DNA of 47,168 nucleotides, taken from an uncultured Eubacteriales bacterium (GTDB taxonomy: Bacteria > Bacillota > Clostridia > Peptostreptococcales > Anaerovoracaceae). The notes below the pieces were generated by a model, which saw only the letters and a program-made list of their open reading frames with translations, did not search any database and had not been told where the DNA came from. Location of the stretch: assembly GCA_902793875.1 (NCBI GenBank), contig CADBFL010000001.1, positions 1-47,168 on the forward strand, read 5' to 3'. Below are positions 1 through 12,217 of the stretch, piece by piece; the stretch's first letter is position 1; each line of letters opens with the position of its first letter. The translations under genes and the position numbers were made by a program.

Positions 1-76
1 TGGTGCGCCCGGCGGGATTCGAACCCGCGGTCTTCGCCTTCGGAGGGCGCTACTCTATCCACTGAGCTACGGGCGC
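1..76 (-). tRNA. tRNA-Arg (anticodon CCG), CCA encoded
   Basis: Reverse complement reads GCGCCCG-TA-GCTC-AGTGGATA-GAGT-A-GCGCC-CTCCGAA-GGCGA-AGACC-GCGGG-TTCGAAT-CCCGC-CGGGCGC-A-CCA. It has a perfect 7-bp acceptor stem, a 5-bp T stem with a TTCGAAT loop, and the anticodon loop CT-CCG-AA. Confidence 0.85.
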
Positions 77-123: not shown

Positions 124-1125
124 TTACAGGTAATCCGTCTCGTATCCCATCGGCCTGCCCATCAGGGTCTCCATCGCGTCCTCGACGGTGATGTTGCCCT
201 TGATGACATTGTAGATGGCGTCGGAGATAGGCATCTCAACATTCAGGCTTTCGGCGAGCTCGTGCACCACCTCGGCGGTGTACATGCCCTCTGCGACCAT
301 GCCGATCTCCTTTATGGCTTCTTCAGGCGTGTGGCCCTGTCCGATCAGCCTTCCGCAGCGGAAGTTCCTTGAATGTATGCTGGTGCAGGTGACTATCATG
401 TCGCCTATGCCCGCGAGACCGAAGAACGTCGAAGGCCTTGCTCCCATGACGACTCCCAGAGCCGTCGTCTCGGCGCAGCCTCTTGTCAGCATCGCCGCGA
501 GAGTGTTGTCTCCGTAGCCGAGCCCGTCGATGATGCCGGAGCCTACTGCCAGCACGTTCTTTAAGGACGCGGCGAGCTCCATGCCCATCATGTCGTCGTT
601 CAGATATACCCTGAACCTGTTGTTCATGAAGAGCTCGGCCATGGCCATGGCTGACTCCTCCTTCTGCGACGACATCGCTACGGCGGTCGGAACTCCGATG
701 CCGACCTCCTCGGCGTGGGAAGGGCCTGAGATGCATACGTATCTGTCCATGTCGAAGTATTCGCTGATGACCTCGGACATCCTCTTGTGGGTCTTCTGCT
801 CTATTCCCTTCGAGATGCAGGTGATTATCGCGTCTTTTCGGATGAAAGGCGCGGCCGCGCTGATGGCGCTCCTTACATGCTGGGCCGGAAGAGCGAAGAT
901 GACGAAGTCCGCGTCGCTGATGGCCTCCTCATTGGTTTTGCAGAAGTGGTAATCACCCTTCAGTTTGACGCCCGGAAGATAGTCCTTGTTTTCCATGTCG
1001 GCTTCCATGCGGGCGAGATGGTCCTGATCTATGTCGTAGATGTTGACTCTGCAGCCCTTTGCCGCAACGATCGTGGAGAGAGCTGTTCCGAAGCTGCCTC
1101 CGCCTACGAATGCTACTGTCTTCAT
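124..1125 (-). CDS. gpsA: NAD(P)H-dependent glycerol-3-phosphate dehydrogenase
   Basis: 333-aa ORF with the N-terminal Rossmann motif VAFVGGGSFGTAL. Length and overall sequence are typical of GpsA. Confidence 0.9.
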   Translation of the reverse strand: MKTVAFVGGGSFGTALSTIVAAKGCRVNIYDIDQDHLARMEADMENKDYLPGVKLKGDYHFCKTNEEAISDADFVIFALPAQHVRSAISAAAPFIRKDAIITCISKGIEQKTHKRMSEVISEYFDMDRYVCISGPSHAEEVGIGVPTAVAMSSQKEESAMAMAELFMNNRFRVYLNDDMMGMELAASLKNVLAVGSGIIDGLGYGDNTLAAMLTRGCAETTALGVVMGARPSTFFGLAGIGDMIVTCTSIHSRNFRCGRLIGQGHTPEEAIKEIGMVAEGMYTAEVVHELAESLNVEMPISDAIYNVIKGNITVEDAMETLMGRPMGYETDYL

Positions 1126-1250: not shown

Positions 1251-1826
1251 ATGGCAACCAACAAAAACAGAAAACAGCTGAAGTTCGTACTCAACGATAA
1301 GGACTACGAAGCGTTCGGACGCTACCGCATAATGTACACGGCTCAGGGCCGCAGGATGGTGATGAGACAGCGCATCACGTATATCATATCGGGCATCTGC
1401 ATCGCAGCGCTCTTTTATGTGTTCCCGGTATCCCAAAGCTTTACCAGGATCGCATATGTGGTCGCGGCGGTCATAGGCATCGGCGGAGCGATATTCGCCG
1501 AAAAGATCGTTCTCAAGCAGCAGAGGCAGGCGATCGAGCGCGCGGAAGCCACCGCCGACTCGGTCAATCAGCCAGAAAACACGGTGCGCTTCGATGACGA
1601 GACCTTCGAGACGAAGGCCGGGGATGATGTACAGACCTTCAGATATGCAGACATCGGACTCATCGACCTGACCGAAGAGGCCATCTACGTATGGATGAGC
1701 GATGAGATGATCATGCCTGTGCCTCTCCACGCCTTCAGGAGCCTGGACGACATGAAGGAGCTCTACAAGTGGATCAAGGCAAAGATAAAGGAGCAGGGCG
1801 GCGCAGCCGGAGACGACGATAAATAG
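1251..1826 (+). CDS. YcxB-like membrane protein (function unknown)
   Basis: 191-aa ORF with the RBS GGAAGGAG upstream. It has two central hydrophobic helices (ITYIISGICIAALFYVF, IAYVVAAVIGIGGAIFA), the layout seen in YcxB-family proteins. Confidence 0.5.
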   Translation: MATNKNRKQLKFVLNDKDYEAFGRYRIMYTAQGRRMVMRQRITYIISGICIAALFYVFPVSQSFTRIAYVVAAVIGIGGAIFAEKIVLKQQRQAIERAEATADSVNQPENTVRFDDETFETKAGDDVQTFRYADIGLIDLTEEAIYVWMSDEMIMPVPLHAFRSLDDMKELYKWIKAKIKEQGGAAGDDDK

Positions 1827-1874: not shown

Positions 1875-1903
1875 TTGACATCCAACACAAGTGTTGCTAT
1901 AGT
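1875..1903 (+). promoter_or_regulatory. SigA-type promoter of the metNIQ leader
   Basis: TTGACA (1875-1880), a 17-nt spacer, then TATAGT (1898-1903). Confidence 0.6.
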
Positions 1904-1940
1904 CACAAATGAACTTATTCTATGAAAGGAGCGCATCCAC

Positions 1941-2006
1941 ATGAGAACAAACATGATGATGACAATGGGAATGATGGGCATGTGCATGCGCAGAGCCGAT
2001 GAATAG
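1941..2006 (+). CDS. Met-rich leader mini-ORF (21 codons, MRTNMMMTMGMMGMCMRRADE)
   Basis: ATG at 1941 lies 9 nt after AAAGGAG, and the stop TAG is at 2004-2006. Nine of the 21 codons are ATG. It lies between the promoter and a terminator upstream of metN, and is below the size cutoff of the ORF track. Confidence 0.55.
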   Translation: MRTNMMMTMGMMGMCMRRADE

Positions 2007-2064
2007 CATAGGATAAGGTCGTAACGAATAAAACCGGAACTATGAGTTTTCTCATGTGATGCAG

Positions 2065-2097
2065 GCGGACAGGTCGTTAAGGCCGGTCCGCTTTTTT
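2065..2097 (+). terminator. Intrinsic terminator/attenuator in the metNIQ leader
   Basis: GCGGACAGG (2065-2073) pairs with CCGGTCCGC (2083-2091) with one mismatch, followed by TTTTTT. It sits 46 nt upstream of the metN start. Confidence 0.6.
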
Positions 2098-2142
2098 ACA
2101 CTCAGAACTATAGACAGAAGCTATAACGGAAAGGGATAACAA

Positions 2143-3195
2143 TTGAGCGAGCACATAATCAGTCTTCAGGGAGTGACCAAGGAATTCGATACCAAAGGGG
2201 GCAAAGTGGTCGCGCTGAAGGACATAGACCTGAATATCGAAAAAGGGGATTCGTACGGGATCATCGGGCTCTCCGGAGCCGGCAAGTCCACTCTCGTAAG
2301 GACGATCAATCTGCTTGAGGAGCCGACCGAAGGAAAGGTCCTCTTCGACGGGAAGCTGCTCACAGGGCTTTCGGCGAAGGAGCTCAACCTCGAGAGGCGG
2401 AGGATCTCGATGATATTCCAGCAGTTCAACCTGCTGATGCAGAGGGACGCGGTCGGCAACATCTGCTTCCCTCTGGAGATCGCCGGAGTGCCGAAGGCCG
2501 AGGCTGCCGAAAAGGCACGGGAGCTTCTGAAGGTAGTCGACCTCGAGGAGAGAGCGAATTCATATCCGTCGCAGCTCTCGGGAGGACAGAAGCAGAGAGT
2601 GGCCATCGCAAGGGCGCTGGCATCGGACCCCGAAGTCATACTCTGCGACGAGGCCACATCGGCCCTGGATCCGAAGACCACAAGATCGATACTGGCGCTT
2701 CTGAGAAAGATCAACGAGGAGCGCGGCATAACCCTGGTGGTCATCACGCACGAGATGGAGGTCATCAAGCAGCTCTGCAACAAGGTGGCGGTCATAGAGA
2801 ACGGCGAGATAGTCGAAAGAGGAGATGTCCAGGAGATGTTCAGAAAGCCTAAGACCAAGGCCGCCAGAAAGCTCTTCTTCCCGGACGGACAGGTCACGGA
2901 GAAGCCTCTTGTGAGGACATCGACAAAGAACAGGGTGAGGCTTGTATACGATGAATCCACCGCGGGCGAGCCTATAATCGCCAACATGATCATGGAACTC
3001 GGGGCGCCGGTGAACTTCCTCTACGCCAACCTCGACGTTCTCGGAGGAGCCCAGAAGGGACAGATGGTCATATGCCTGGCAGAAGACGCGGCGACTGCCG
3101 CGAAGCAGAAGGAATACCTCAGGGCGAAGGGAGTGGACTTCACTGAGATAGAGGAAGATGAGATCGACCACCACGGAGAGGAGGGTGATGCGTAA
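2143..3195 (+). CDS. metN: Methionine ABC transporter ATP-binding protein
   Basis: 350 aa, TTG start 6 nt after GGAAAGGGA. It has Walker A GLSGAGKST, the signature LSGGQKQR and a C-terminal NIL/ACT-like domain typical of MetN. Confidence 0.9.
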   Translation: MSEHIISLQGVTKEFDTKGGKVVALKDIDLNIEKGDSYGIIGLSGAGKSTLVRTINLLEEPTEGKVLFDGKLLTGLSAKELNLERRRISMIFQQFNLLMQRDAVGNICFPLEIAGVPKAEAAEKARELLKVVDLEERANSYPSQLSGGQKQRVAIARALASDPEVILCDEATSALDPKTTRSILALLRKINEERGITLVVITHEMEVIKQLCNKVAVIENGEIVERGDVQEMFRKPKTKAARKLFFPDGQVTEKPLVRTSTKNRVRLVYDESTAGEPIIANMIMELGAPVNFLYANLDVLGGAQKGQMVICLAEDAATAAKQKEYLRAKGVDFTEIEEDEIDHHGEEGDA

Positions 3196-3857
3196 TGGAT
3201 GCACAGACATTGATCCGGCTGCTCGGAGAGGGCACGGTCCAGACGCTGATCATGACCCTGGTCGGGACGCTCGTATCGTATCTGATCGGACTTCCGGTGG
3301 GCGTGTCGCTCATAGTCACAGGGCCCAACGGCATAAAGCCGGCTCCGCTGTACAACAGGACGATGGGCTTCATCGTCAACGTGATCAGATCGATGCCGTT
3401 CCTCATACTCATGATCGCCGTCATGCCTTACATAAGGAAGGTGATCGGGACGGGAATAGGGACATCCGCCACCACGGCGGCGCTGATAGTAGCGGCGTGG
3501 CCTTTCGTAGCCAGACTGGTGGAGCAGAGCCTGCTCGAAGTCGACTCCGGGGTCATCGAAGCCGCCCAGGCCATGGGGGCCGGCACCATGCAGATAGTCC
3601 GCAAGGTGCTGCTCCTGGAGGCAAGACCGTCGCTCATAAACGGAGCGGCAGTCGCGACCATCACCATACTGGGATACTCGGCGATGGCCGGTACGCTCGG
3701 CGGCGGAGGTCTCGGAGACATAGCCATCAGATTCGGCCACTACAGGTTCCAGCCTGATGTGATGTGGATAACGATACTCGTGCTGGTCGTGCTTGTGCAG
3801 ATAATGCAGGAGATCGGCGTGAAACTGGCGGGCAGACTTGACAACCGCCTGAACTAG
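3195..3857 (+). CDS. metI: Methionine ABC transporter permease
   Basis: 220-aa polytopic membrane protein of the MetI type. Its start overlaps the metN stop (TAATG). Confidence 0.9.
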   Translation: MDAQTLIRLLGEGTVQTLIMTLVGTLVSYLIGLPVGVSLIVTGPNGIKPAPLYNRTMGFIVNVIRSMPFLILMIAVMPYIRKVIGTGIGTSATTAALIVAAWPFVARLVEQSLLEVDSGVIEAAQAMGAGTMQIVRKVLLLEARPSLINGAAVATITILGYSAMAGTLGGGGLGDIAIRFGHYRFQPDVMWITILVLVVLVQIMQEIGVKLAGRLDNRLN

Positions 3858-3918: not shown

Positions 3919-4761
3919 ATGAAGAACATCAAAAGATTCAGCATTCTGGCACTCGCGCTCGTACTCGCTCTCGGCGTTTTCAGCGCATGCGGCAAGAGCG
4001 GCGGCGGTGAAGAAGGCGGAGACGACAGCGCGGACAAGACCATCACAGTGGCGGCATCGCCTACGCCTCACGCAGAGATCCTGAACTCGATCAGCGACGC
4101 TCTCGCTGAAGAGGGATGGACGCTCGAGGTCAAGGAATTTGAAGACTATGTGCAGCCTAACGTTGCAACGACCGACGGCGACGTGGACGCAAACTACTTC
4201 CAGCACGTTCCGTATCTCGATGAATACAACCAGCAGAACGGCACCAAACTCGTAGCAGTAGGCAATGTGCACTATGAGCCGATGGGCGTATACGCGGGAC
4301 AGAAGAAGAGCTTCGACGAGCTGGCTGAAGGCGACAAGATCGGCATCCCTAACGATGCAACGAACGGCGCCAGGGCGCTGCTCCTTCTTCAGGACAACGG
4401 AGTCATCAAGCTCAAGGACGATGCAGGCGTGACGGCAACAGAGGAAGACATCGCCGAGAATCCTAAGAACATCGAGATCGTGCCTCTCGAAGCGGCGCAG
4501 ATCCCGGGATCGCTCGAGGACCTCGCGGTCGGAGTCATCAACGCCAACTACGCTATAGGAGCGGGGCTGGACATCAAGGGAGCCCTCGCGACAGAGGCAA
4601 GTGATTCCCTCGCGGCAGACACGTATGTGAACGTGATCGTTGTGAACGAGGAGAACAAGGACAGCGAGAAGACGAAAGCCCTTGTCAAGGCCATCCAGAC
4701 AGACGCCGTAAAGAAGTTCATCGAAGAAAAGTACAACGGCGCGGTAGTGGCGAAATTCTAG
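3919..4761 (+). CDS. metQ: Methionine-binding lipoprotein (NlpA/MetQ family)
   Basis: 280 aa with a signal peptide and the lipobox VFSAC (Cys24). It is an NlpA-type substrate-binding protein and the third gene of the met transporter cluster. Confidence 0.9.
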   Translation: MKNIKRFSILALALVLALGVFSACGKSGGGEEGGDDSADKTITVAASPTPHAEILNSISDALAEEGWTLEVKEFEDYVQPNVATTDGDVDANYFQHVPYLDEYNQQNGTKLVAVGNVHYEPMGVYAGQKKSFDELAEGDKIGIPNDATNGARALLLLQDNGVIKLKDDAGVTATEEDIAENPKNIEIVPLEAAQIPGSLEDLAVGVINANYAIGAGLDIKGALATEASDSLAADTYVNVIVVNEENKDSEKTKALVKAIQTDAVKKFIEEKYNGAVVAKF

Positions 4762-4879: not shown

Positions 4880-5581
4880 ATGCACAAAACAGCAGTGCTG
4901 GCGGGAACGCCGGTGGATACACAGATGGGGGTGGACTTTCTTAACGGAAAGAACGAAACGGCGGCAGAGGACATGCGGATAAAGCCGCTGTACAGGCCTG
5001 TGACGGAGGACTGCGACGTCCAGCTGAGGTTCCAGTATTCGGACGACGACGAAAAGCGCGATGTCCTGGATTCCATATTTGACGCGGATATCGAAGACGG
5101 CGTCAGGGACTTTTTCATATACTGCAACTCGCTTTCGGGAGCCTTCGATTTCGACAGATACGCCATGCGAAAATCCCTTGAGAGCGGAGAGGACATCCGC
5201 ATATATACCCCGCTGCAGATATACAGAAAACTCGGAGAGAACTACAGCCGGATAGGGGTCCTTGCGGCAAATAACCTGTCGGCTCATTCCATAGAGGAGG
5301 CCCTCTTGTCGTCCAACGGGGACCTGTATGTCATCGGCTCGGGAAACATGGCGATCGTAAGGGCCATAGAGGACGGAAAAGACCCGCGGCAGATCGCCGG
5401 GGAGTGCGGGCTCGCCGCTGCGGCCGCCTACATGAAGGCCTGCGGAGCTGAGGCGCTGCTTCTGGGCTGCACGCATTTTCCCTGCCTCAGGGAGGAGCTT
5501 GAAAAGATCTGCAGGCTTCCGATCATAGATCCCGCCGACATGATGTACGAAGAGCTGATGAAGCATCTCATAAGAGAGTGA
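4880..5581 (+). CDS. Asp/Glu/hydantoin racemase superfamily protein
   Basis: 233 aa with the two catalytic-Cys contexts of the family (IYCNSLSG and LLLGCTHFP). The N-terminus is not MurI-like. Confidence 0.7.
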   Translation: MHKTAVLAGTPVDTQMGVDFLNGKNETAAEDMRIKPLYRPVTEDCDVQLRFQYSDDDEKRDVLDSIFDADIEDGVRDFFIYCNSLSGAFDFDRYAMRKSLESGEDIRIYTPLQIYRKLGENYSRIGVLAANNLSAHSIEEALLSSNGDLYVIGSGNMAIVRAIEDGKDPRQIAGECGLAAAAAYMKACGAEALLLGCTHFPCLREELEKICRLPIIDPADMMYEELMKHLIRE

Positions 5582-5818: not shown

Positions 5819-8800
5819 ATGAAAATGGATAACAATTTTGTAAAAGTCGGTAAATGGGGCGAGTGCCTCTGGGGCATCAACGAGAACGGCGGGCTCTACA
5901 TCATAGAGGGTCTTGCCGGCAGCGTGGATGAAGGGATATCGCCGTGGGCTGATTCGATGGCGGCGATCACGTCCGCCAATACGGTCGGCACCGTGACATT
6001 CCCTGACGGGGCCTCTCTCGCGGGCCTGTTCAAGGGCTGCAAGAACATGGTGACTGCCGATCTCAGCGGCTTCGTCACGGACAATGTCTCGAACATGAGC
6101 TCGATGTTCGAGGGATGCGCCAACCTCAGGGAGCTCGACATCTCGTCTTTCGATACCCGCCGCTGCTCGAACATGCACGCGATGTTCAGCAAGTGCGCGA
6201 ACCTGGAGGAGATCCTTCTCGCCCAGGATTTCAGCACGGAAGGAGACGGAAGCACCCGCTGCGACAGGCTGGCTGTGAAGGAATACGGCAAGTATAAAAA
6301 GGCGAAGCCTATCTACGTCGAGGGATTCAGGGTGATATATCACGACAACCTCGACGAGGACCGCACCGAAGAAACAAGGACCACGCCGGGCGTCAGATAT
6401 ATCATCGAAGAGCCGATGTTCAGCTCGCCGAGCGACAGGGCGGTCTTCGTTTCGTGGAACACCGACCCCGATGCGAAGGGCGCGTATTACCGTCCGGGAA
6501 AGGCCGTCGATGCGCTCGACGAGGATCTCAACCTCTACGCAGTATGGGCATGGGCCCCTGTGATCAAACAGTCCCCTCAGATCAGATCATTCACATACGG
6601 AGAAAGGATACCGTTCGAAGTCCCTGAGATCGAATCCGTTAACGATCCGGAGGTCACCGGTTATCTCGAGATAAGCGAAACAGGCGAGGAAGGGACATGG
6701 AAGGTCATCAACCACAACACCATCCTTCCTGTATCCTACAACGGATGGCTCTGCAGGCTCCACGCCTCCAACAGCGTGGGCGAGGCCGTGTCCGATCCGG
6801 TCAAGCTCAATATAAAGAAGGCGAGCATTGACGTATCCGGCATACGCTGGGTCGAAGACAAAAACATGGTCTATGACGGCACGCCGAAGGAGGTCCATAT
6901 CGAGGGACTGCCTGACACCATCGAGCCGAGGTACGAGGGCAACGTCGCCACCGACGCGGGCACGTATACCGCGAGCTACGCGTTCGTCTTCGACAGGGAC
7001 AACTTCAACGAGCCTGTCACGGTAAGAGAGCACGAGTGGACCATCCGCAAGGCTGCCCTCGACATGTCGCAGGTGCGCTGGAACTACACGGGCGCATTCA
7101 GATATGACGGCACGGCCAGGAGCGTGGAGCTCACCGGCCTGCCTGAGGGAGTCACCGCGATCTATGAGAACAACGTCGCGACGGATACCGGCGTGTATAC
7201 CGCGACGGCGATGCTCAACTACGATTTCAAGAATTACGAAAAGCCGGCAGACATAGTCCCGTGCGTATGGGAGATCAGAAAGGTCACCATCGATGCGAGC
7301 TCTATCCGCTGGTCGGATTATGACGACTTCGTTTATGACGGCAACCCTAAGGGCGTGTATATCACGAACCTGCCTGACGACGCGGAGGTCGTATACGACG
7401 GGGCCGAAGAGACTCTCGCCGGCAAATACCTGGCAAGAGCGGCCTTCATCGGCAACTACAATACGAATGCTCCTGCGGAGTACGAGTGGGAGATCGCCAA
7501 GAGGCACTACGACCTCAGCAACGTCAGATGGACCGAGCAGAGGGACTTCTCGTATGACGGAGAGCCTCACGGCATAGTCCTCACAGGCGTTCCCGAGGAT
7601 CTGCAGGTAAGATATTCGGGCAATGTGGGAGTGACTGCGGGCAGCTATACCGCAAGGGCGGTGTTCATCAATCCGGACACTCACAACTACATCACGCCTG
7701 CCGACATGACCATGGAATGGCAGATAAGCAAGAAGTTCGTCGACATGTCGCAGGTCCGCTGGGATTACGAGGGAGCGTTCACATACGACGGAGAGGCGAA
7801 GGCCGTTTCGCTGGTCGGACTGCCTGAGGGCATAGGCGTGGATTACGAGAACTTCATGGCCTTCGATGCGGGCGAATACAACGCGCGCGCGATCCTGAGG
7901 TATGACGAGGACAATCTCGACGTCGAGTGGCCTGCGGACTGCCAGTGGAGGATCAACAAGAAAAAGATCGACGTGTCCGGCATCTACTGGGATTACAGCG
8001 ACGCGTTCACGTACACCGGAAGAGAGCACGCCGTTTATCTGGCGGGAGTTCCCGAAGGGCTGAACGTCGAATACGCAGACAACGTCAAGACGGAGACGGG
8101 CACATATGTCGCGAGCGCGACCCTGACTCCTGTTGACGAGGGCAACTACGAGGTGCCTGAAGTCAACGGCTGCACATGGACCATAAGAAAGGCCGAGTAC
8201 GAATTCGGAGCGATCGAGTGGACCGATTACAGGGGCTTTGTGTACGACGGAAAGGAAAAGAAGGTCAGGATCGAGTCCGGACTGGACGAGAATATCCGGG
8301 TCGAATACGAGGATGATACCGCGGTCAACGCCGGCAGGTACTTCACCAAGGCGGTATTCTCGCTGACCGATGACACCAACCTGAATCCGCCGAAGCCGGA
8401 GGGCTACTCGTGGAGCATCGCGAAGGCCAGACACGACATGTCCAAGGTCGTTTGGGACTATGAGAACGCATTCACCTACGACGGAAGCGAGAAGTCCGTG
8501 AGACTCCGCGGCGTCCCTGAAGGGGTGATAGTGAACTACAGGAACGCTTCGGCCAGCGACGCCGGAGACTATACCGCAGTCGCCCGCTTCGAGGTGCAGG
8601 ACGCTAACAACTACGAGACCAGCATACCTGACATGGTGCTCGACTGGACTATAAGAAAAGCCGTCTTCGACATGAGCGGAGCTAAATGGCAGGGAGACAG
8701 GGAATACGCCTACGACGGCGAGCTCAAGGGCGAGAGCCTGAGGCTGACCGGGCTTCCTGACGGCGTCGTCCCTGTATACGTCGACAGCACCGCGGTCGAT

Positions 8801-11800
8801 GCCGGCGAATATACGGCAAAGGCCATGCTTGCCTATGACGAGAAGAACTACGAGAAGCCTGAAGTCGCGTCCTGCCACTGGGTGATCGAGAAATCCCCTC
8901 TGGATCTCTCGAACATCAGCTGGGACTACGACAGGGCGTTCGTATATGACGGTTCCGAAAAGAGGGTGTTCGTGAGCGACGTGCCTGTCGGAGCCAGAGT
9001 GGAATACAGCAATGCATGGGCGTCTCAGGCAGGCACATACGTGGCGGCTGCCGAGATCATACCTGATGACAGCGACAACCTCATCAAGGGAAGGCTCGAG
9101 AACCTCACGTGGAGGATCGAGCGCGGCGACTACGACATGAGCCATGCCCACTGGGATTACGACAAGGCGTTCGTATACGACGGCGAAGAGCACAAAGTCG
9201 TCATCAAGGGACTCCCTGAGGGCGTGACCGCTCACTACAGGGGCAACACGGCCACGAATTCCGGAGACTACAGCGCTTCGGTCACGTTTACGGTGGCCGA
9301 TGAGCACAACTACAACATCCCTGAGATGGCCGATCTTTCGTGGTCGATCGCAAAGGCCGACTACGATCTGTCGTCCGCGGCATGGACCTACGAGGGCGAG
9401 CTCACATATACGGGAAGCCTGCAGGAGGTCACTCTGAGAGGGCTGCCTGAGGGAGTAAGACCTGTATACAGCGGCAACACCGCCGTGAACACGGGCTCAT
9501 ACGAGGCGACTGCCGATCTCATCCCTTACGATCCGGAGAACTACAATAAGCCTTCCGTGGGCGGCTGCAGCTGGAGGATCGTCAAGGCGGATTACGAGAT
9601 GTCGGCGGTGAGATGGGATTACAACACGAGCAAGACGTTCAACGGCAGCGTCCAGAACGTCGTTCTCGAGCACCTTCCGATCGGCGTTTCGGCGATCTAC
9701 TACGGCAATGAGGCAAAAGAGGTCGGGACCTACACTGCGAGCGCTGAGCTCACGGTGGCGGATCCTGTCAACTACAACATACCTTCGGTCAGCGACTGCG
9801 ACTGGGAGATCGTGCGCGCGGAGTACGATCTCAGCGGAGCATACTGGGATTACGACGAGGGCATGTACACATATGACGGCAATGCCAAGACCGTCACCAT
9901 GAAGAATCTGCCTGAAGGTCTCGGAGTATCCTACAAGGGAAACAGCGGGACGTCCGCGGGAGAGTACCTCGCCACCGCTTCGTTCGAGACATATGACAAG
10001 AACTACGAGACGCCGGATTCAGTTTCCATACCTTGGAAGATAGAGCAGCTCAGCTACGACATGAGCGGCGTCGAATGGGATTACAGGGAGAGATTCACAT
10101 ACGACGGGTCGGCCAAGAGAGTCGAGCTCACTGGCCTGCCTGTGGGCATCAAGGTAGAGTACGAAGAGAACACGGCCATAGACGCGGGCACATATACCGC
10201 GGTCGCCAGGTTCAGCAGCGAGAGCGACAACTACCGCACTCCTGAAGATATGTACTGCACCTGGATGATAGGCAAGGCGGACATAGACATACGCAGGGTA
10301 TCCTGGAACTACTCACAGAGCTTCGTGTATGACGGAACGGCCAAGACCATCGAGCTCATGAATCTGCCTGAGCAGCTCGAGGCGAGCTACAGCAACAACA
10401 GCGCGACGGAGACGGGCGCATATACCGCTCACGCCGAGCTGATGCCGCTGAGGCCTGACAACTACAACGTCCCGTTCATCAGAGACTGCGTCTGGTCGAT
10501 CGAAAAGGCCGACTACGACATGTCCGAAGCGAGATGGGAGGGCGAATTCGAATTCGTCTACGACGGGACCGAAAAGGGCGTGTACGTCACGGGACTTCCG
10601 GAAGGCGTCGTTCCTGTATACGAAGGAAACACCGCGGTCGATGCCGGCTCATATACAGCGTCGGTCGGCTTCAGGTGCGACACGGACAACTACAATGTCC
10701 CTGTGCTGGGAGACTGCAGCTGGACGATCAGAAAAGCCGTATTCGACATGTCCGGCGCCGCATGGTACGCAGAGGACAGGATCGTATACGACGGGACCAG
10801 CAAGTCCATCAAGCTGAGAGGACTTCCTGAGGGGCTCACCCCTGTGTACAGCGGCAATACAGCCGTGAACGCCGGAGACTACGAGGCTTCGGTGGAATTC
10901 GAATTCGACGAGAACAACTACTACAGACCGGAATTCGGAGGCTGCAGATGGCATATCGCTCCTGCAGACATCGATGTCGATGTGTCCGAGATACGCTGGA
11001 ACTACGACAGGCCGTTCGTATACGACGGAGAGACCAAGAGCGTCGCGATCGCACAGACGTCGACCGACGTCGGATTCCTGGACAAGCTGCGCGGGCGCAA
11101 GCCTGAGCTGAGGCTCACGGGAGTTCCTGACGGCTTCTACGTGGTATACGACAACAACTACGCTGACCAGGTCGGAGTATATTACGCGAGCGCGAAGCTC
11201 ATCAGCATCGATGATGCCGAGAACTACAACGAGCTCGTGCTGCCGAAGTTCAGATGGGAGATCGTCAAGGCAAGCGTCGACATGTCGGGAGTCAGATGGA
11301 ACTACGAAGGACCGTTCACATACGACGGAGAGGAGAAGTCGGTCGAGCTCATCGGCCTGCCGGATAACGTCGATGTAACGTACTCGGACAACACGGGCAC
11401 CGACGCGGGCGATCACGAGGCCATGGCCATGATCGAGGTCAGGGATACGCGCAATTACGAGACCCCGAAGCCTGTCAGCGGATGCTGGTGGCAGATCAAC
11501 AAGGCGACCTACGACATGTCGCAGGCCCACTGGACCTACGAGGACGACATCGAATACGACGGCAAGGAAAAGACCGTCAGGGTAACAGGCCTTCCTGAGG
11601 GCGTAAAGGTCGAATCCTACAGAGGCAACAGAGGAATGGAGGCCGGAAGCTATACCGCCGAGGTATTCCTCAGATACCAGAACAAGGAGAACTTCGAGGA
11701 GCCGCTGATGCCTGCTCTGAGATGGAGGATCCAGAAGAAGAGGATCGATACGTCCGAAGTCGAGTGGGATTACGACGAGGAAACAGGATTTGTCTTCGAC

Positions 11801-12217
11801 GAAAAACTGAAAGCCGTCAGCCTGACCGGAGTGCCTGACGACGTGGAAGTCGTCTACACCGACAACGTCAAGGCCGGCGCGGGCACATACGTCGCCAGGG
11901 CAAAGCTGATCTACGACACCAGGAACTGCGAGGCTGACAGCATACCTGATCTGAGATGGAGGATCAGGAAGGCTTCGTACGACACGTCGAAGACGCGCTG
12001 GACTTATGAGAAGCCGTTCAGATACGACGGCACCGAGAAGAGCATCGCGCTGACCGGCCTGCCTGCATCGATCGCAGTAAGGTACAGAGACAACAAGGCT
12101 TCGGCCATAGGCACATATACGGCCAAGGCGTATCTGACCTACGACAGCGACAATTATGAGATGCCTGAGGTCGATACGATGATCGACTGGTCCATCATAG
12201 GAAGGGAAGTCGAATAA
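5819..12217 (+). CDS. Giant repeat protein: BspA/DUF285-type LRR + Listeria-Bacteroides-type repeat + 23 MBG-like modules
   Basis: 2,132-aa ORF with an in-frame TGA immediately upstream of the ATG. The N-terminus has 26-residue LRR-type repeats (SNMSSMFEGCANLRELDISSFDT, SNMHAMFSKCANLEEI). One Flg_new-like repeat follows (VFVSWNTDPDAKGAYYRPGKAV..LYAVWA). After that come 23 diverged 75-85-aa modules sharing W-x-Y..(F/Y)xYDGxxKxV..GLPEGV..Y..N..AGxYTA..NY..W-I-KA..DMS. Confidence 0.85.
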   Translation: MKMDNNFVKVGKWGECLWGINENGGLYIIEGLAGSVDEGISPWADSMAAITSANTVGTVTFPDGASLAGLFKGCKNMVTADLSGFVTDNVSNMSSMFEGCANLRELDISSFDTRRCSNMHAMFSKCANLEEILLAQDFSTEGDGSTRCDRLAVKEYGKYKKAKPIYVEGFRVIYHDNLDEDRTEETRTTPGVRYIIEEPMFSSPSDRAVFVSWNTDPDAKGAYYRPGKAVDALDEDLNLYAVWAWAPVIKQSPQIRSFTYGERIPFEVPEIESVNDPEVTGYLEISETGEEGTWKVINHNTILPVSYNGWLCRLHASNSVGEAVSDPVKLNIKKASIDVSGIRWVEDKNMVYDGTPKEVHIEGLPDTIEPRYEGNVATDAGTYTASYAFVFDRDNFNEPVTVREHEWTIRKAALDMSQVRWNYTGAFRYDGTARSVELTGLPEGVTAIYENNVATDTGVYTATAMLNYDFKNYEKPADIVPCVWEIRKVTIDASSIRWSDYDDFVYDGNPKGVYITNLPDDAEVVYDGAEETLAGKYLARAAFIGNYNTNAPAEYEWEIAKRHYDLSNVRWTEQRDFSYDGEPHGIVLTGVPEDLQVRYSGNVGVTAGSYTARAVFINPDTHNYITPADMTMEWQISKKFVDMSQVRWDYEGAFTYDGEAKAVSLVGLPEGIGVDYENFMAFDAGEYNARAILRYDEDNLDVEWPADCQWRINKKKIDVSGIYWDYSDAFTYTGREHAVYLAGVPEGLNVEYADNVKTETGTYVASATLTPVDEGNYEVPEVNGCTWTIRKAEYEFGAIEWTDYRGFVYDGKEKKVRIESGLDENIRVEYEDDTAVNAGRYFTKAVFSLTDDTNLNPPKPEGYSWSIAKARHDMSKVVWDYENAFTYDGSEKSVRLRGVPEGVIVNYRNASASDAGDYTAVARFEVQDANNYETSIPDMVLDWTIRKAVFDMSGAKWQGDREYAYDGELKGESLRLTGLPDGVVPVYVDSTAVDAGEYTAKAMLAYDEKNYEKPEVASCHWVIEKSPLDLSNISWDYDRAFVYDGSEKRVFVSDVPVGARVEYSNAWASQAGTYVAAAEIIPDDSDNLIKGRLENLTWRIERGDYDMSHAHWDYDKAFVYDGEEHKVVIKGLPEGVTAHYRGNTATNSGDYSASVTFTVADEHNYNIPEMADLSWSIAKADYDLSSAAWTYEGELTYTGSLQEVTLRGLPEGVRPVYSGNTAVNTGSYEATADLIPYDPENYNKPSVGGCSWRIVKADYEMSAVRWDYNTSKTFNGSVQNVVLEHLPIGVSAIYYGNEAKEVGTYTASAELTVADPVNYNIPSVSDCDWEIVRAEYDLSGAYWDYDEGMYTYDGNAKTVTMKNLPEGLGVSYKGNSGTSAGEYLATASFETYDKNYETPDSVSIPWKIEQLSYDMSGVEWDYRERFTYDGSAKRVELTGLPVGIKVEYEENTAIDAGTYTAVARFSSESDNYRTPEDMYCTWMIGKADIDIRRVSWNYSQSFVYDGTAKTIELMNLPEQLEASYSNNSATETGAYTAHAELMPLRPDNYNVPFIRDCVWSIEKADYDMSEARWEGEFEFVYDGTEKGVYVTGLPEGVVPVYEGNTAVDAGSYTASVGFRCDTDNYNVPVLGDCSWTIRKAVFDMSGAAWYAEDRIVYDGTSKSIKLRGLPEGLTPVYSGNTAVNAGDYEASVEFEFDENNYYRPEFGGCRWHIAPADIDVDVSEIRWNYDRPFVYDGETKSVAIAQTSTDVGFLDKLRGRKPELRLTGVPDGFYVVYDNNYADQVGVYYASAKLISIDDAENYNELVLPKFRWEIVKASVDMSGVRWNYEGPFTYDGEEKSVELIGLPDNVDVTYSDNTGTDAGDHEAMAMIEVRDTRNYETPKPVSGCWWQINKATYDMSQAHWTYEDDIEYDGKEKTVRVTGLPEGVKVESYRGNRGMEAGSYTAEVFLRYQNKENFEEPLMPALRWRIQKKRIDTSEVEWDYDEETGFVFDEKLKAVSLTGVPDDVEVVYTDNVKAGAGTYVARAKLIYDTRNCEADSIPDLRWRIRKASYDTSKTRWTYEKPFRYDGTEKSIALTGLPASIAVRYRDNKASAIGTYTAKAYLTYDSDNYEMPEVDTMIDWSIIGREVE

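Follow-up and report, generated by a model that had tools for sequence, protein, structure and literature searches.

A methionine-codon-rich leader ORF and a candidate ribosome-sensed attenuator of the metNIQ importer operon in rumen and gut Anaerovoracaceae

Computational analysis was carried out on a 47,168-nucleotide stretch of contig CADBFL010000001.1 from an uncultured member of the Anaerovoracaceae (the whole stretch is referred to as the window, and coordinates are counted from its first nucleotide). In this window the metNIQ operon, which encodes a methionine ABC importer, is preceded by a leader that contains a mini open reading frame (ORF) rich in AUG codons, an intrinsic terminator and a strand able to form an antiterminator. 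A ribosome reading the AUG codons is very probably the sensor of this leader. The exact wiring, namely a ribosome-mediated transcription attenuator of metNIQ that reads charged elongator Met-tRNA, is proposed with moderate confidence. A ribosome-sensed, Met-keyed leader-peptide attenuator had been put forward in a first-pass annotation of the sequence, and this proposal is supported by the lack of any Rfam match in the leader, by an in-frame Met run in 38 leaders and by a conserved terminator. At the level of sequence the leader has the features by which leader-peptide attenuators are recognized: a Shine-Dalgarno (SD) sequence with an ORF, AUG enrichment, a terminator and a conserved reading frame.

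Conservation of the Met-rich mini-ORF

The 21-codon ORF preceded by AAAGGAG that the first-pass annotation had described was confirmed, as was every other element it had listed, each at its given position (Table 1). Nine of its 21 codons are AUG (at 1941, 1953, 1956, 1959, 1965, 1971, 1974, 1980 and 1986), and these triplets recur at a period of 3 or 6 nucleotides. The pattern ATGNNNATGATGNNNATG, which covers part of the AUG run, was matched once in the 47 kb window compared with 0.01 matches expected from shuffled sequences, which excludes chance as the origin of the run.

Table 1. Features of the metNIQ leader and of its neighborhood in the window
Feature	Coordinates	Strand	Description
Sigma-A type promoter	1875-1903	+	-35 TTGACA 1875-1880, 17-nucleotide spacer, -10 TATAGT 1898-1903
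P1 5' strand (A)	1909-1924	+	core CUUAUUCUAUG 1914-1924 plus 4-nucleotide extension 1909-1912; transcript 5' end, directly before the SD sequence
SD sequence of the mini-ORF	1925-1931	+	AAAGGAG; 9 nucleotides before ATG 1941; in the internal loop between P1 and P2
P2 5' arm	1931-1943	+	GCGCAUCCACAUG; SD-to-start region; start codon 1941-1943 paired
Leader mini-ORF	1941-2006	+	21 codons, MRTNMMMTMGMMGMCMRRADE; stop codon UAG 2004-2006
Eight elongator AUG codons	1953-1988	+	codons 5, 6, 7, 9, 11, 12, 14 and 16; proposed sensing codons; nucleotides invariant
P2 3' arm	1979-1991	+	CAUGUGCAUGCGC; last base of the Gly13 codon plus codons 14-17, Met-Cys-Met-Arg
P1 3' strand (B)	2007-2022	+	CAUAGGAUAAG 2007-2017 plus extension 2019-2022 overlapping the antiterminator strand; starts right after the stop codon
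Antiterminator 5' strand (B')	2017-2027	+	GGUC-G-UAACGA; pairs with terminator loop and upper 3' arm, 2074-2084
Small hairpin H	2041-2056	+	UAUGAG-UUUU-CUCAUG; between antiterminator strand and terminator
Intrinsic terminator	2065-2097	+	stem 2065-2070:2086-2091 plus 2072-2075:2081-2084, loop 2076-2080, U6 2092-2097
metN, methionine ABC importer ATPase	2143-3195	+	Pfam ABC_tran 2.4e-34, NIL domain 1e-15
metI, permease	3195-3857	+	Pfam BPD_transp_1 3.7e-14
metQ, substrate-binding lipoprotein	3919-4761	+	Pfam Lipoprotein_9 (NlpA) 9e-86
YcxB-like gene	1251-1826		precedes the leader, which fills the gap to metN
gpsA, NAD-dependent glycerol-3-phosphate dehydrogenase	124-1125	-	upstream of the YcxB-like gene
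tRNA gene	4-76	-	69.5 bits; sole Rfam match at gathering score in the window

Both the near-consensus promoter that had been placed ahead of metN and the assignment of the operon to metNIQ, for which the Pfam domains of all three genes agree, were borne out. The promoter matches the consensus at 11 of 12 positions and has an extended -10 element (TG at 1895-1896). Promoter-like sites are not above chance by themselves (one found in 3.3 kb, 1.4 expected), and the promoter is taken as real on the ground that it is kept in orthologous metN loci, not from site statistics. Its position predicts a transcript start at about 1909-1911. The metN gene has a TTG start codon with the SD sequence GGAAAGGGA upstream and begins 45 nucleotides past the U6 tract of the terminator. 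A small hairpin (UAUAG-acagaag-CUAUA, 2108-2126) lies between the terminator and this SD sequence and is kept only in the closest relatives (L001, L002 and L039).

A MetN protein scan over one genome per GTDB species returned 80 loci. The closest 39 of these (74-94% MetN identity) belong to rumen and gut metagenome-assembled genomes (MAGs) labelled Mogibacterium, Anaerovoracaceae or Clostridiales (Clostridia, Peptostreptococcales). The same mini-ORF was found upstream of metN in 38 of the 39 close loci, representing roughly 36 species-level genomes, and the lone exception, L035, has just 80 nucleotides of upstream sequence present.

An intact 5' part was available for 38 leaders, comprising 35 of the close loci, two metagenome contigs and the window. 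Whether the Met run is conserved in related leaders was a question raised by the first-pass annotation, and alignment of the metN upstream regions showed the run to be kept in frame in all 38. Start codon and invariant core are 24, 27 or 33 nucleotides apart, always a multiple of 3, and the SD-to-AUG spacing is 8-10 nucleotides, both without exception in this set. The leader peptides have 20-25 amino acids with 7-9 Met residues and share a nearly invariant core, M-x-M-G-M-M-G-M-C-M-C, the flanking residues of which are not conserved; codons 2-8 and the C-terminal tail vary freely, and the stop codon (UAG, UAA or UGA) lies 0-14 nucleotides before the next conserved block. The frame and the AUG run are kept while other codons, indels and the stop codon drift, a pattern typical of a translated ORF that is selected for a run of particular codons and not for its protein.

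Several close loci depart from the simple arrangement. Two MAGs have two metNIQ operons with a leader copy at each (L014/L015 and L027/L028), the L014 copy being a decayed remnant. The leader of L016 lies 560 nucleotides upstream of metN, because tandem repeats of about 370 nucleotides (units containing CCGGA...TTGATAAC; L016:400-780) were inserted between the terminator and the gene. A frame-broken second copy of the Met run, such as ATGATGATGGAATTGAGAATGATGGACATGTGCATGTGC, is present between the terminator and the metN SD sequence in L017 (about 2905-3000) and also in L014 and L028, and appears to be left over from a tandem leader duplication. Deletion variants were found that have no P1 3' strand, antiterminator strand or hairpin H (L006), no terminator 3' arm (L019), little of the P1 5' strand (L033, which has lost most of it), or no P1 5' strand, SD sequence and start codon (L007); these four may represent genuine regulatory mutants or errors of MAG assembly.

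Different Met-rich upstream ORFs (uORFs) of 30-40 codons with 7-12 Met residues were found at nine of the 41 more distant loci (52-58% MetN identity), for example MTFRKNGMMNMMDMCCMGMCMCTFTDKLISMT and, in Herbinix, MRTSVIVMCNMCDMCGMCNMYDMPYKILRSDR. Each of the nine has its own SD sequence and is followed by a strong hairpin and a U-run ahead of metN, and in most distant families the strand that pairs best with the terminator is located at or near the uORF stop codon. The carriers include an isolate, Herbinix hemicellulosilytica T3/55T (L068), in which the leader contains AUGUG repeats at a 9-nucleotide period. The M-G-M-C-M-C motif was seen again in more distant families. A protein search with the 40-amino-acid peptide of the L040 uORF gave no match.

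The first-pass annotation had seen neither an S-box nor a T-box in the leader, and the Rfam 15 scans agreed. At gathering score no class of S-adenosylmethionine (SAM) or S-adenosylhomocysteine riboswitch, no T-box (RF00230) and no leader family was matched in the metN leader of the window, and at E<=10 the region 1800-2250 gave just two meaningless snoRNA matches; the Met-uORF leaders of L031 and L068 had no Rfam match at E<=1. A SAM-I riboswitch (RF00162, 89-94 bits) was found about 90-200 nucleotides upstream of metN in three Cellulosilyticum loci (L057, L060 and L065), and these matches also provide a positive control for the scans that found nothing. Since other lineages carry unrelated uORFs or SAM-I at this position, a uORF followed by a terminator appears to be one of several interchangeable metN controls in Clostridia. 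The SAM-I elements at the same position in the Cellulosilyticum relatives fit the idea that the Met-uORF leader may replace the usual riboswitch.

A metagenome scan with the pattern ATGGGNATGTGYATGTGY yielded only two genuine leaders among its matches (L084 and L085). The matches (L081-L160) were mostly (ATGTGC)n and (TG)n microsatellite-like DNA on environmental, probably eukaryotic contigs, which calls for caution in pattern searches for uORFs rich in Met and Cys. Cys-rich ORFs of 100-115 codons with a Met content of 21-27% (...MMGMCMCHDCSTMKDCSMN...) were found on three soil or peat metagenome contigs (L082, L093 and L108); these share MGMCMC, and the leader context is absent.

Alternative structures of the leader RNA

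The leader from 1910 to 2100 folds better than any of 200 dinucleotide shuffles (z = -3.8). An alignment of 31 leaders (alignment A1), with 74% identity per column and long invariant blocks, was folded with RNAalifold, and the consensus contained three helices, P1, P2 and the terminator T. In P1, which joins the transcript 5' end to the sequence past the stop codon, 95.9% of the alignment cells are paired, and duplex energies range from -15 to -21 kcal/mol in 17 leaders. P1 is kept by altered sequences in L036 (CUACGC:GCGUAG), L020 and L023, and it extends by 3-6 pairs into the next block, with changed pairs in L001 (CUGA:UCAG), L030 (CAGA:UCUG) and L018 (UAUGAC:GUCAUA). The whole mini-ORF is thus enclosed in a two-part stem of P1 and P2; its SD sequence falls in the internal loop, and its start codon is base-paired.

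In P2, AUG codons 5-12 fall within a 35-nucleotide loop (1944-1978, about one ribosome footprint), and codons 14 and 16 are in the 3' arm. Compensatory pairs were found in P2: at 1933:1989 the A-U of other leaders is matched by a G-C in the window, and alignment columns 31:84 form a G-C pair in L030 and L034. A Cys-to-Arg change in the peptide occurs exactly where the P2 partner changes (in the window, L030 and L034). Because this change tracks P2 pairing, the 'MCMC' end of the peptide is attributed to a constraint on the RNA, not on the protein.

Hairpin H is supported by G-C to A-U changes on both sides in three leaders, while one subgroup (for example L008) pairs CUCA elsewhere; the hairpin might serve as a spacer or for pausing. 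The sequence AUGGGAA of the Met run could pair with the conserved UUCUCAU (2048-2054), and a hairpin between strand B and the 5' side of H (CAUAG:CUAUG) is possible; in both cases the sequences are conserved, with no covariation by which to judge them. Two other candidates were rejected. A 14-bp helix of 1933-1947 with 2049-2062, seen in masked folds of the window, needs the variable second codon AGA, is 6 bp in most orthologues and is not a feature of the family. In L047, RNA upstream of the SD sequence copies the terminator 5' arm (GGGCAGAC), and this is not kept in the relatives L050, L056 and L067.

The GC-rich hairpin followed by TTTTTT that had been placed inside the metN leader was confirmed as a predicted terminator that folds at -18.7 kcal/mol, and it is conserved in the orthologous leaders with five pairs of the lower stem changed on both sides. 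A simple terminator scan detected only the upper part of the hairpin. Hardly any variation occurs in the loop and upper stem (CAGGUCGUUAGGACCUG) across the 31-leader alignment, which is odd for a plain terminator.

No convincing antiterminator pairing had been found by eye in the first-pass annotation. One was identified here, formed by 2017-2027 with 2074-2084, so that the loop and upper 3' arm of the terminator are taken up. The invariant GGUC-N-UAACGA is complementary to UCGUUA-N-GRCC, with 94.5% of the alignment cells paired, and the duplex was present in all 36 leaders tested, at a mean of -11.9 kcal/mol compared with -5.2 for shuffled strands. One compensatory change was observed, a G-C to A-U double change in L034 with a G-U intermediate in L030. 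In the window the antiterminator extends to 2011-2014:2086-2089 and 2034-2036:2066-2068, thereby covering the whole terminator. Antiterminators formed by the ORF or the upstream RNA with the terminator 5' arm were also considered and gave just weak, G-U-rich and non-conserved pairings.

The balance between the two conformers was calculated for different states of the leader. When the whole leader was free, the terminator conformer was favored over the antiterminator by 12.0 kcal/mol (range 7.8-18.9; 32 leaders). With a ribosome on the stop codon the terminator was favored by 8.1 kcal/mol (31 leaders; L022, in which the antiterminator strand is fully covered, was left out), and with folding from the first base past the stop codon, as if the 5' half were held by ribosomes, by 5.6 kcal/mol (range 0-10.7; 32 leaders). 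In the window itself, with the 5' half withheld, the antiterminator is the minimum-energy fold. Stepwise folds of the window gave the antiterminator as the minimum-energy structure once 2079-2085 were available, and the terminator only after 2086-2091 were added. The direction of the modeled energy shift is what classical attenuation needs. As to alternative folds that depend on ribosome position, terminator and antiterminator alternatives were found and the modeled energy gap between them shifts with the position of the ribosome; however, P1 and the core antiterminator can coexist in the model.

Proposed mechanism and rival explanations

Transcription would begin at about 1909, and a ribosome would load at the SD sequence and start codon (1925-1943) and then have to decode eight more AUG codons within 36 nucleotides. 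With plentiful Met-tRNA, the ribosome would clear the mini-ORF and leave at the UAG codon. The vacated RNA would then close, P2 joining the start-codon region to codons 14-17 and P1 joining the transcript 5' end to the 16 nucleotides past the stop codon. With 2007-2022 occupied by P1, the terminator hairpin (2065-2091) would fold, polymerase would stop in the U-tract and metNIQ would be off.

When Met-tRNA is scarce, one or more ribosomes would sit on the AUG run. P2 would be impossible with a waiting ribosome, because the AUG codons sit in its loop or 3' arm, and the stem, left without a nucleus, would remain open. The freed sequence 2011-2036 could then pair with the emerging terminator strands, with GGUC-UAACGA and UCGUUA-GGCC as its core. 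By taking up the loop and the pairs that close it, this duplex would prevent the hairpin from nucleating there, and polymerase would continue into metN. P1 would be kept open by the loss of the P2 nucleus, by an 82-nucleotide loop filled with one or two ribosomes and by a 30S subunit on the SD sequence 1 nucleotide from P1; queued or initiating ribosomes and sterics are further arguments for an open P1. Translation of the mini-ORF, stalling at the AUG codons, the holding open of P1 by the ribosome and the outcome at the terminator are thus predicted from the sequence and the folds.

Several points weigh against this mechanism. Because the terminator is thermodynamically favored in every state in most orthologues, the switch would have to be kinetic. 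The P1 5' strand lies upstream of the SD sequence, so that a ribosome stalled on the AUG run leaves P1 uncovered, and nearest-neighbor folds with a masked ribosome still form P1 around the mask. P1 overlaps the core antiterminator by only 4-6 nucleotides, and the folding model allows both together. Covariation is thin, with both partners altered at six pairs of the named structure, which is explained by the close similarity of the leader sequences. The nucleotides of the leader are conserved far beyond the need of a leader peptide; for example, the third positions of both Gly codons and UUCUCAUGU are invariant, and these positions point to a further constraint at the RNA level that the model does not explain. 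Moreover, in Bacillus subtilis transcription outruns translation, and ribosome-coupled attenuation is less easy in Firmicutes.

A leader with the opposite default wiring is regarded as unlikely, and some of the same folds speak for it. Here an antiterminator stacked on P1 would be the RNA's own state, so that an untranslated or stalled leader would read through, and termination would occur only when a ribosome that has decoded all AUG codons in time reaches the stop codon, where it would mask 2007-2015 and disrupt P1 as the terminator is made. The antiterminator forms beside an intact P1 core in every simulated state once 2079-2085 are out, and P1 and the antiterminator are on one continuous strand (2007-2027) and could stack. 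The stop codon is always 0-14 nucleotides before the antiterminator strand, and the terminator is favored more with a ribosome on the stop codon than when the B strand is free (8.1 versus 5.6 kcal/mol). This wiring also avoids the problem that methionine starvation stops initiation as well. On the other hand, the P1 extension 1909-1912:2019-2022, with its changed pairs in L001, L030 and L018, enters the GGUC of the antiterminator, which fits a competitor and not a stacking partner; the free whole leader gives the strongest terminator preference (12.0 kcal/mol); and in most loci the footprint of a ribosome on the stop codon ends 1-2 nucleotides short of the antiterminator strand, giving no direct block.

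A dual reading is offered tentatively and with clear doubt. The start codon is locked in P2, and if the antiterminator is the form taken by an untranslated leader, read-through might follow both from failed initiation (too little formylmethionyl-tRNA) and from delays at the eight internal AUG codons (too little elongator Met-tRNA). If true, only a ribosome that both initiates and finishes on time would turn the importer off, a wiring not described for any leader-peptide attenuator, and the paradox of a sensor that cannot be translated without the very amino acid it senses would be solved.

It is improbable that the RNA itself is the sensor, as a riboswitch not yet described (for SAM, methionine or a similar compound) or as a target of a TRAP-like protein on AUG/AUGUGC triplets, with the ORF incidental. 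Such a sensor would account for the extreme nucleotide conservation, which includes synonymous positions and unpaired stretches, for the presence of AGGUC in both the antiterminator strand and the terminator, and for the AUGUG repeats of Herbinix, and metN is under a riboswitch in relatives. Nevertheless, in 38 of 38 leaders the AUG run shares its frame with a start codon preceded by a good SD sequence, and any indels separating the two have lengths divisible by three. Other Clostridia keep the uORF-plus-terminator plan and share almost no RNA sequence, no Rfam model matches the leader, and the single Met codon together with helices P1, P2 and the antiterminator explains much of the invariance. 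The conserved SD sequence, start codon and frame argue against TRAP-like attenuation in particular.

An arrest peptide of the TnaC or SpeFL type, in which the Met/Cys-rich nascent chain would sense free methionine or SAM in the ribosome tunnel, is highly improbable. The near-invariance of the peptide core, the recurrence of M-G-M-C-M-C in distant families and the CMCRRMC end of the Streptomyces lividans metL peptide (PMC8079986) would suit such a peptide. The Cys codons are, however, explained by P2 and are replaced by Arg codons where the partner changes, Met has a single codon, the residues that flank the core are not conserved, and, without an inverted wiring, a ligand-induced stall at high methionine would lead to read-through just when import is needed least.

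That the ORF encodes a functional small protein, such as a metal-binding or antioxidant Met-rich peptide, or is a chance ORF, and that the hairpin is an ordinary terminator or stabilizer, is hardly credible: Met- and Cys-rich motifs bind Cu(I) in other proteins and unrelated 100-115-amino-acid Met/Cys-rich ORFs with MGMCMC occur in the soil metagenomes (L082, L093 and L108), but the AUG-run statistics exclude a chance ORF, the ORF is always between the promoter and a terminator directly upstream of metN, the peptide termini are unconstrained, and a terminator between the gene and its co-transcribed operon is sensible only as a regulated stop.

Further downstream in the window, the importer operon is followed by a racemase-like gene (4880-5581) and then by a single ORF of 2132 codons (5819-12217, + strand).

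Comparison with known systems

S-box riboswitches and Met-specific T-boxes are the usual controls of methionine genes in Firmicutes, and leader-peptide attenuation, although a textbook mechanism, is considered rare in this group. To our knowledge, methionine has never been shown to be the sensed residue of leader-peptide attenuation. The metNIQ leader resembles trpL, hisL, leuL, thrL, pheL and ilvL of E. coli and Salmonella in having a short ORF with an SD sequence and codons for the amino acid of the operon, and a terminator with a candidate competing antiterminator. As in the classical attenuators, the stop codon is placed shortly ahead of the antiterminator strand, and the leader, when untranslated, is predicted to adopt a terminator-permissive fold. 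It differs from them in that the sensed residue would be Met, whose codon also starts translation, in that the target is an importer and not a biosynthetic operon, and in that the host is a Firmicute of the Clostridium class. In addition, the sequestering strand ('region 1') is upstream of the SD sequence, not inside the ORF, which places the entire ORF within a two-part stem; the antiterminator pairs with the loop and 3' arm of the terminator, not with its 5' arm; and no Rfam leader family matches.

A counterpart at the same operon is metL of Streptomyces lividans TK24, a short ORF that likewise precedes metNIQ; it was annotated from transcript-start mapping and read as methionine-dependent attenuation (PMC8079986). 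It is leaderless, with 29 amino acids and three internal Met residues, and has no typical terminator according to its authors, with no conservation or functional test reported; its CMCRRMC end resembles the MCMC found here (PMC8079986). This was the only precedent for a Met leader found in a literature search that was incomplete, so that a recent description may exist.

The mycobacterial polycysteine uORFs, which are leaderless, sense Cys and are buried in a long, very stable leader duplex (10.1101/834739), are similar in that they sense an amino acid outside the classical set, the other sulfur amino acid, through a uORF buried in a leader duplex; unlike the metNIQ leader, they act on translation initiation of the next gene and not on a terminator. 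A recent survey of noncoding RNAs described the motifs cysS uORFC-8-2 and aroF uORFC-13-1 for Cys and Phe uORFs (PMC8632094), and none of these elements, including the mycobacterial ones, senses Met. A large motif catalogue has no Met leader among its entries (PMC5737381). Leader peptides were noted to be rare in Firmicutes by Naville and Gautheret in 2010, who described hisS/hisZ leaders (PMC2965389). Together with the Lactococcus leu/phe leader (RF01743), these are examples of ribosome-mediated attenuation in Firmicutes that can replace T-boxes; they are keyed to other amino acids and have no sequence or Rfam similarity to the leader described here.

If the proposed mechanism is true, charged Met-tRNA joins the signals that control methionine uptake. 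The Met-keyed leader is conserved in roughly 36 species-level genomes of rumen and gut Anaerovoracaceae, and other forms are present in Clostridia that include the cultured type strain of Herbinix hemicellulosilytica. Because it is absent from Rfam and its 21-codon ORF is under the usual length limits of gene callers, annotation pipelines miss the element; a covariance model could be built from alignment A1. The leader would be a natural system for asking how a ribosome senses the amino acid needed for its own initiation, and its layout is unusual, with an ORF wholly enclosed in a stem and an antiterminator that attacks the terminator loop.

In conclusion, the metNIQ leader shares with the SAM-I (S-box) and Met T-box controls the same position, the same operon and an intrinsic terminator as its output. 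Unlike these controls, it matched no aptamer or tRNA-binding leader, and it would sense charged Met-tRNA at the ribosome and not SAM or uncharged tRNA. Compared with the classical attenuators, it would extend a textbook mechanism to the one amino acid that also starts translation and would not constitute a new principle.

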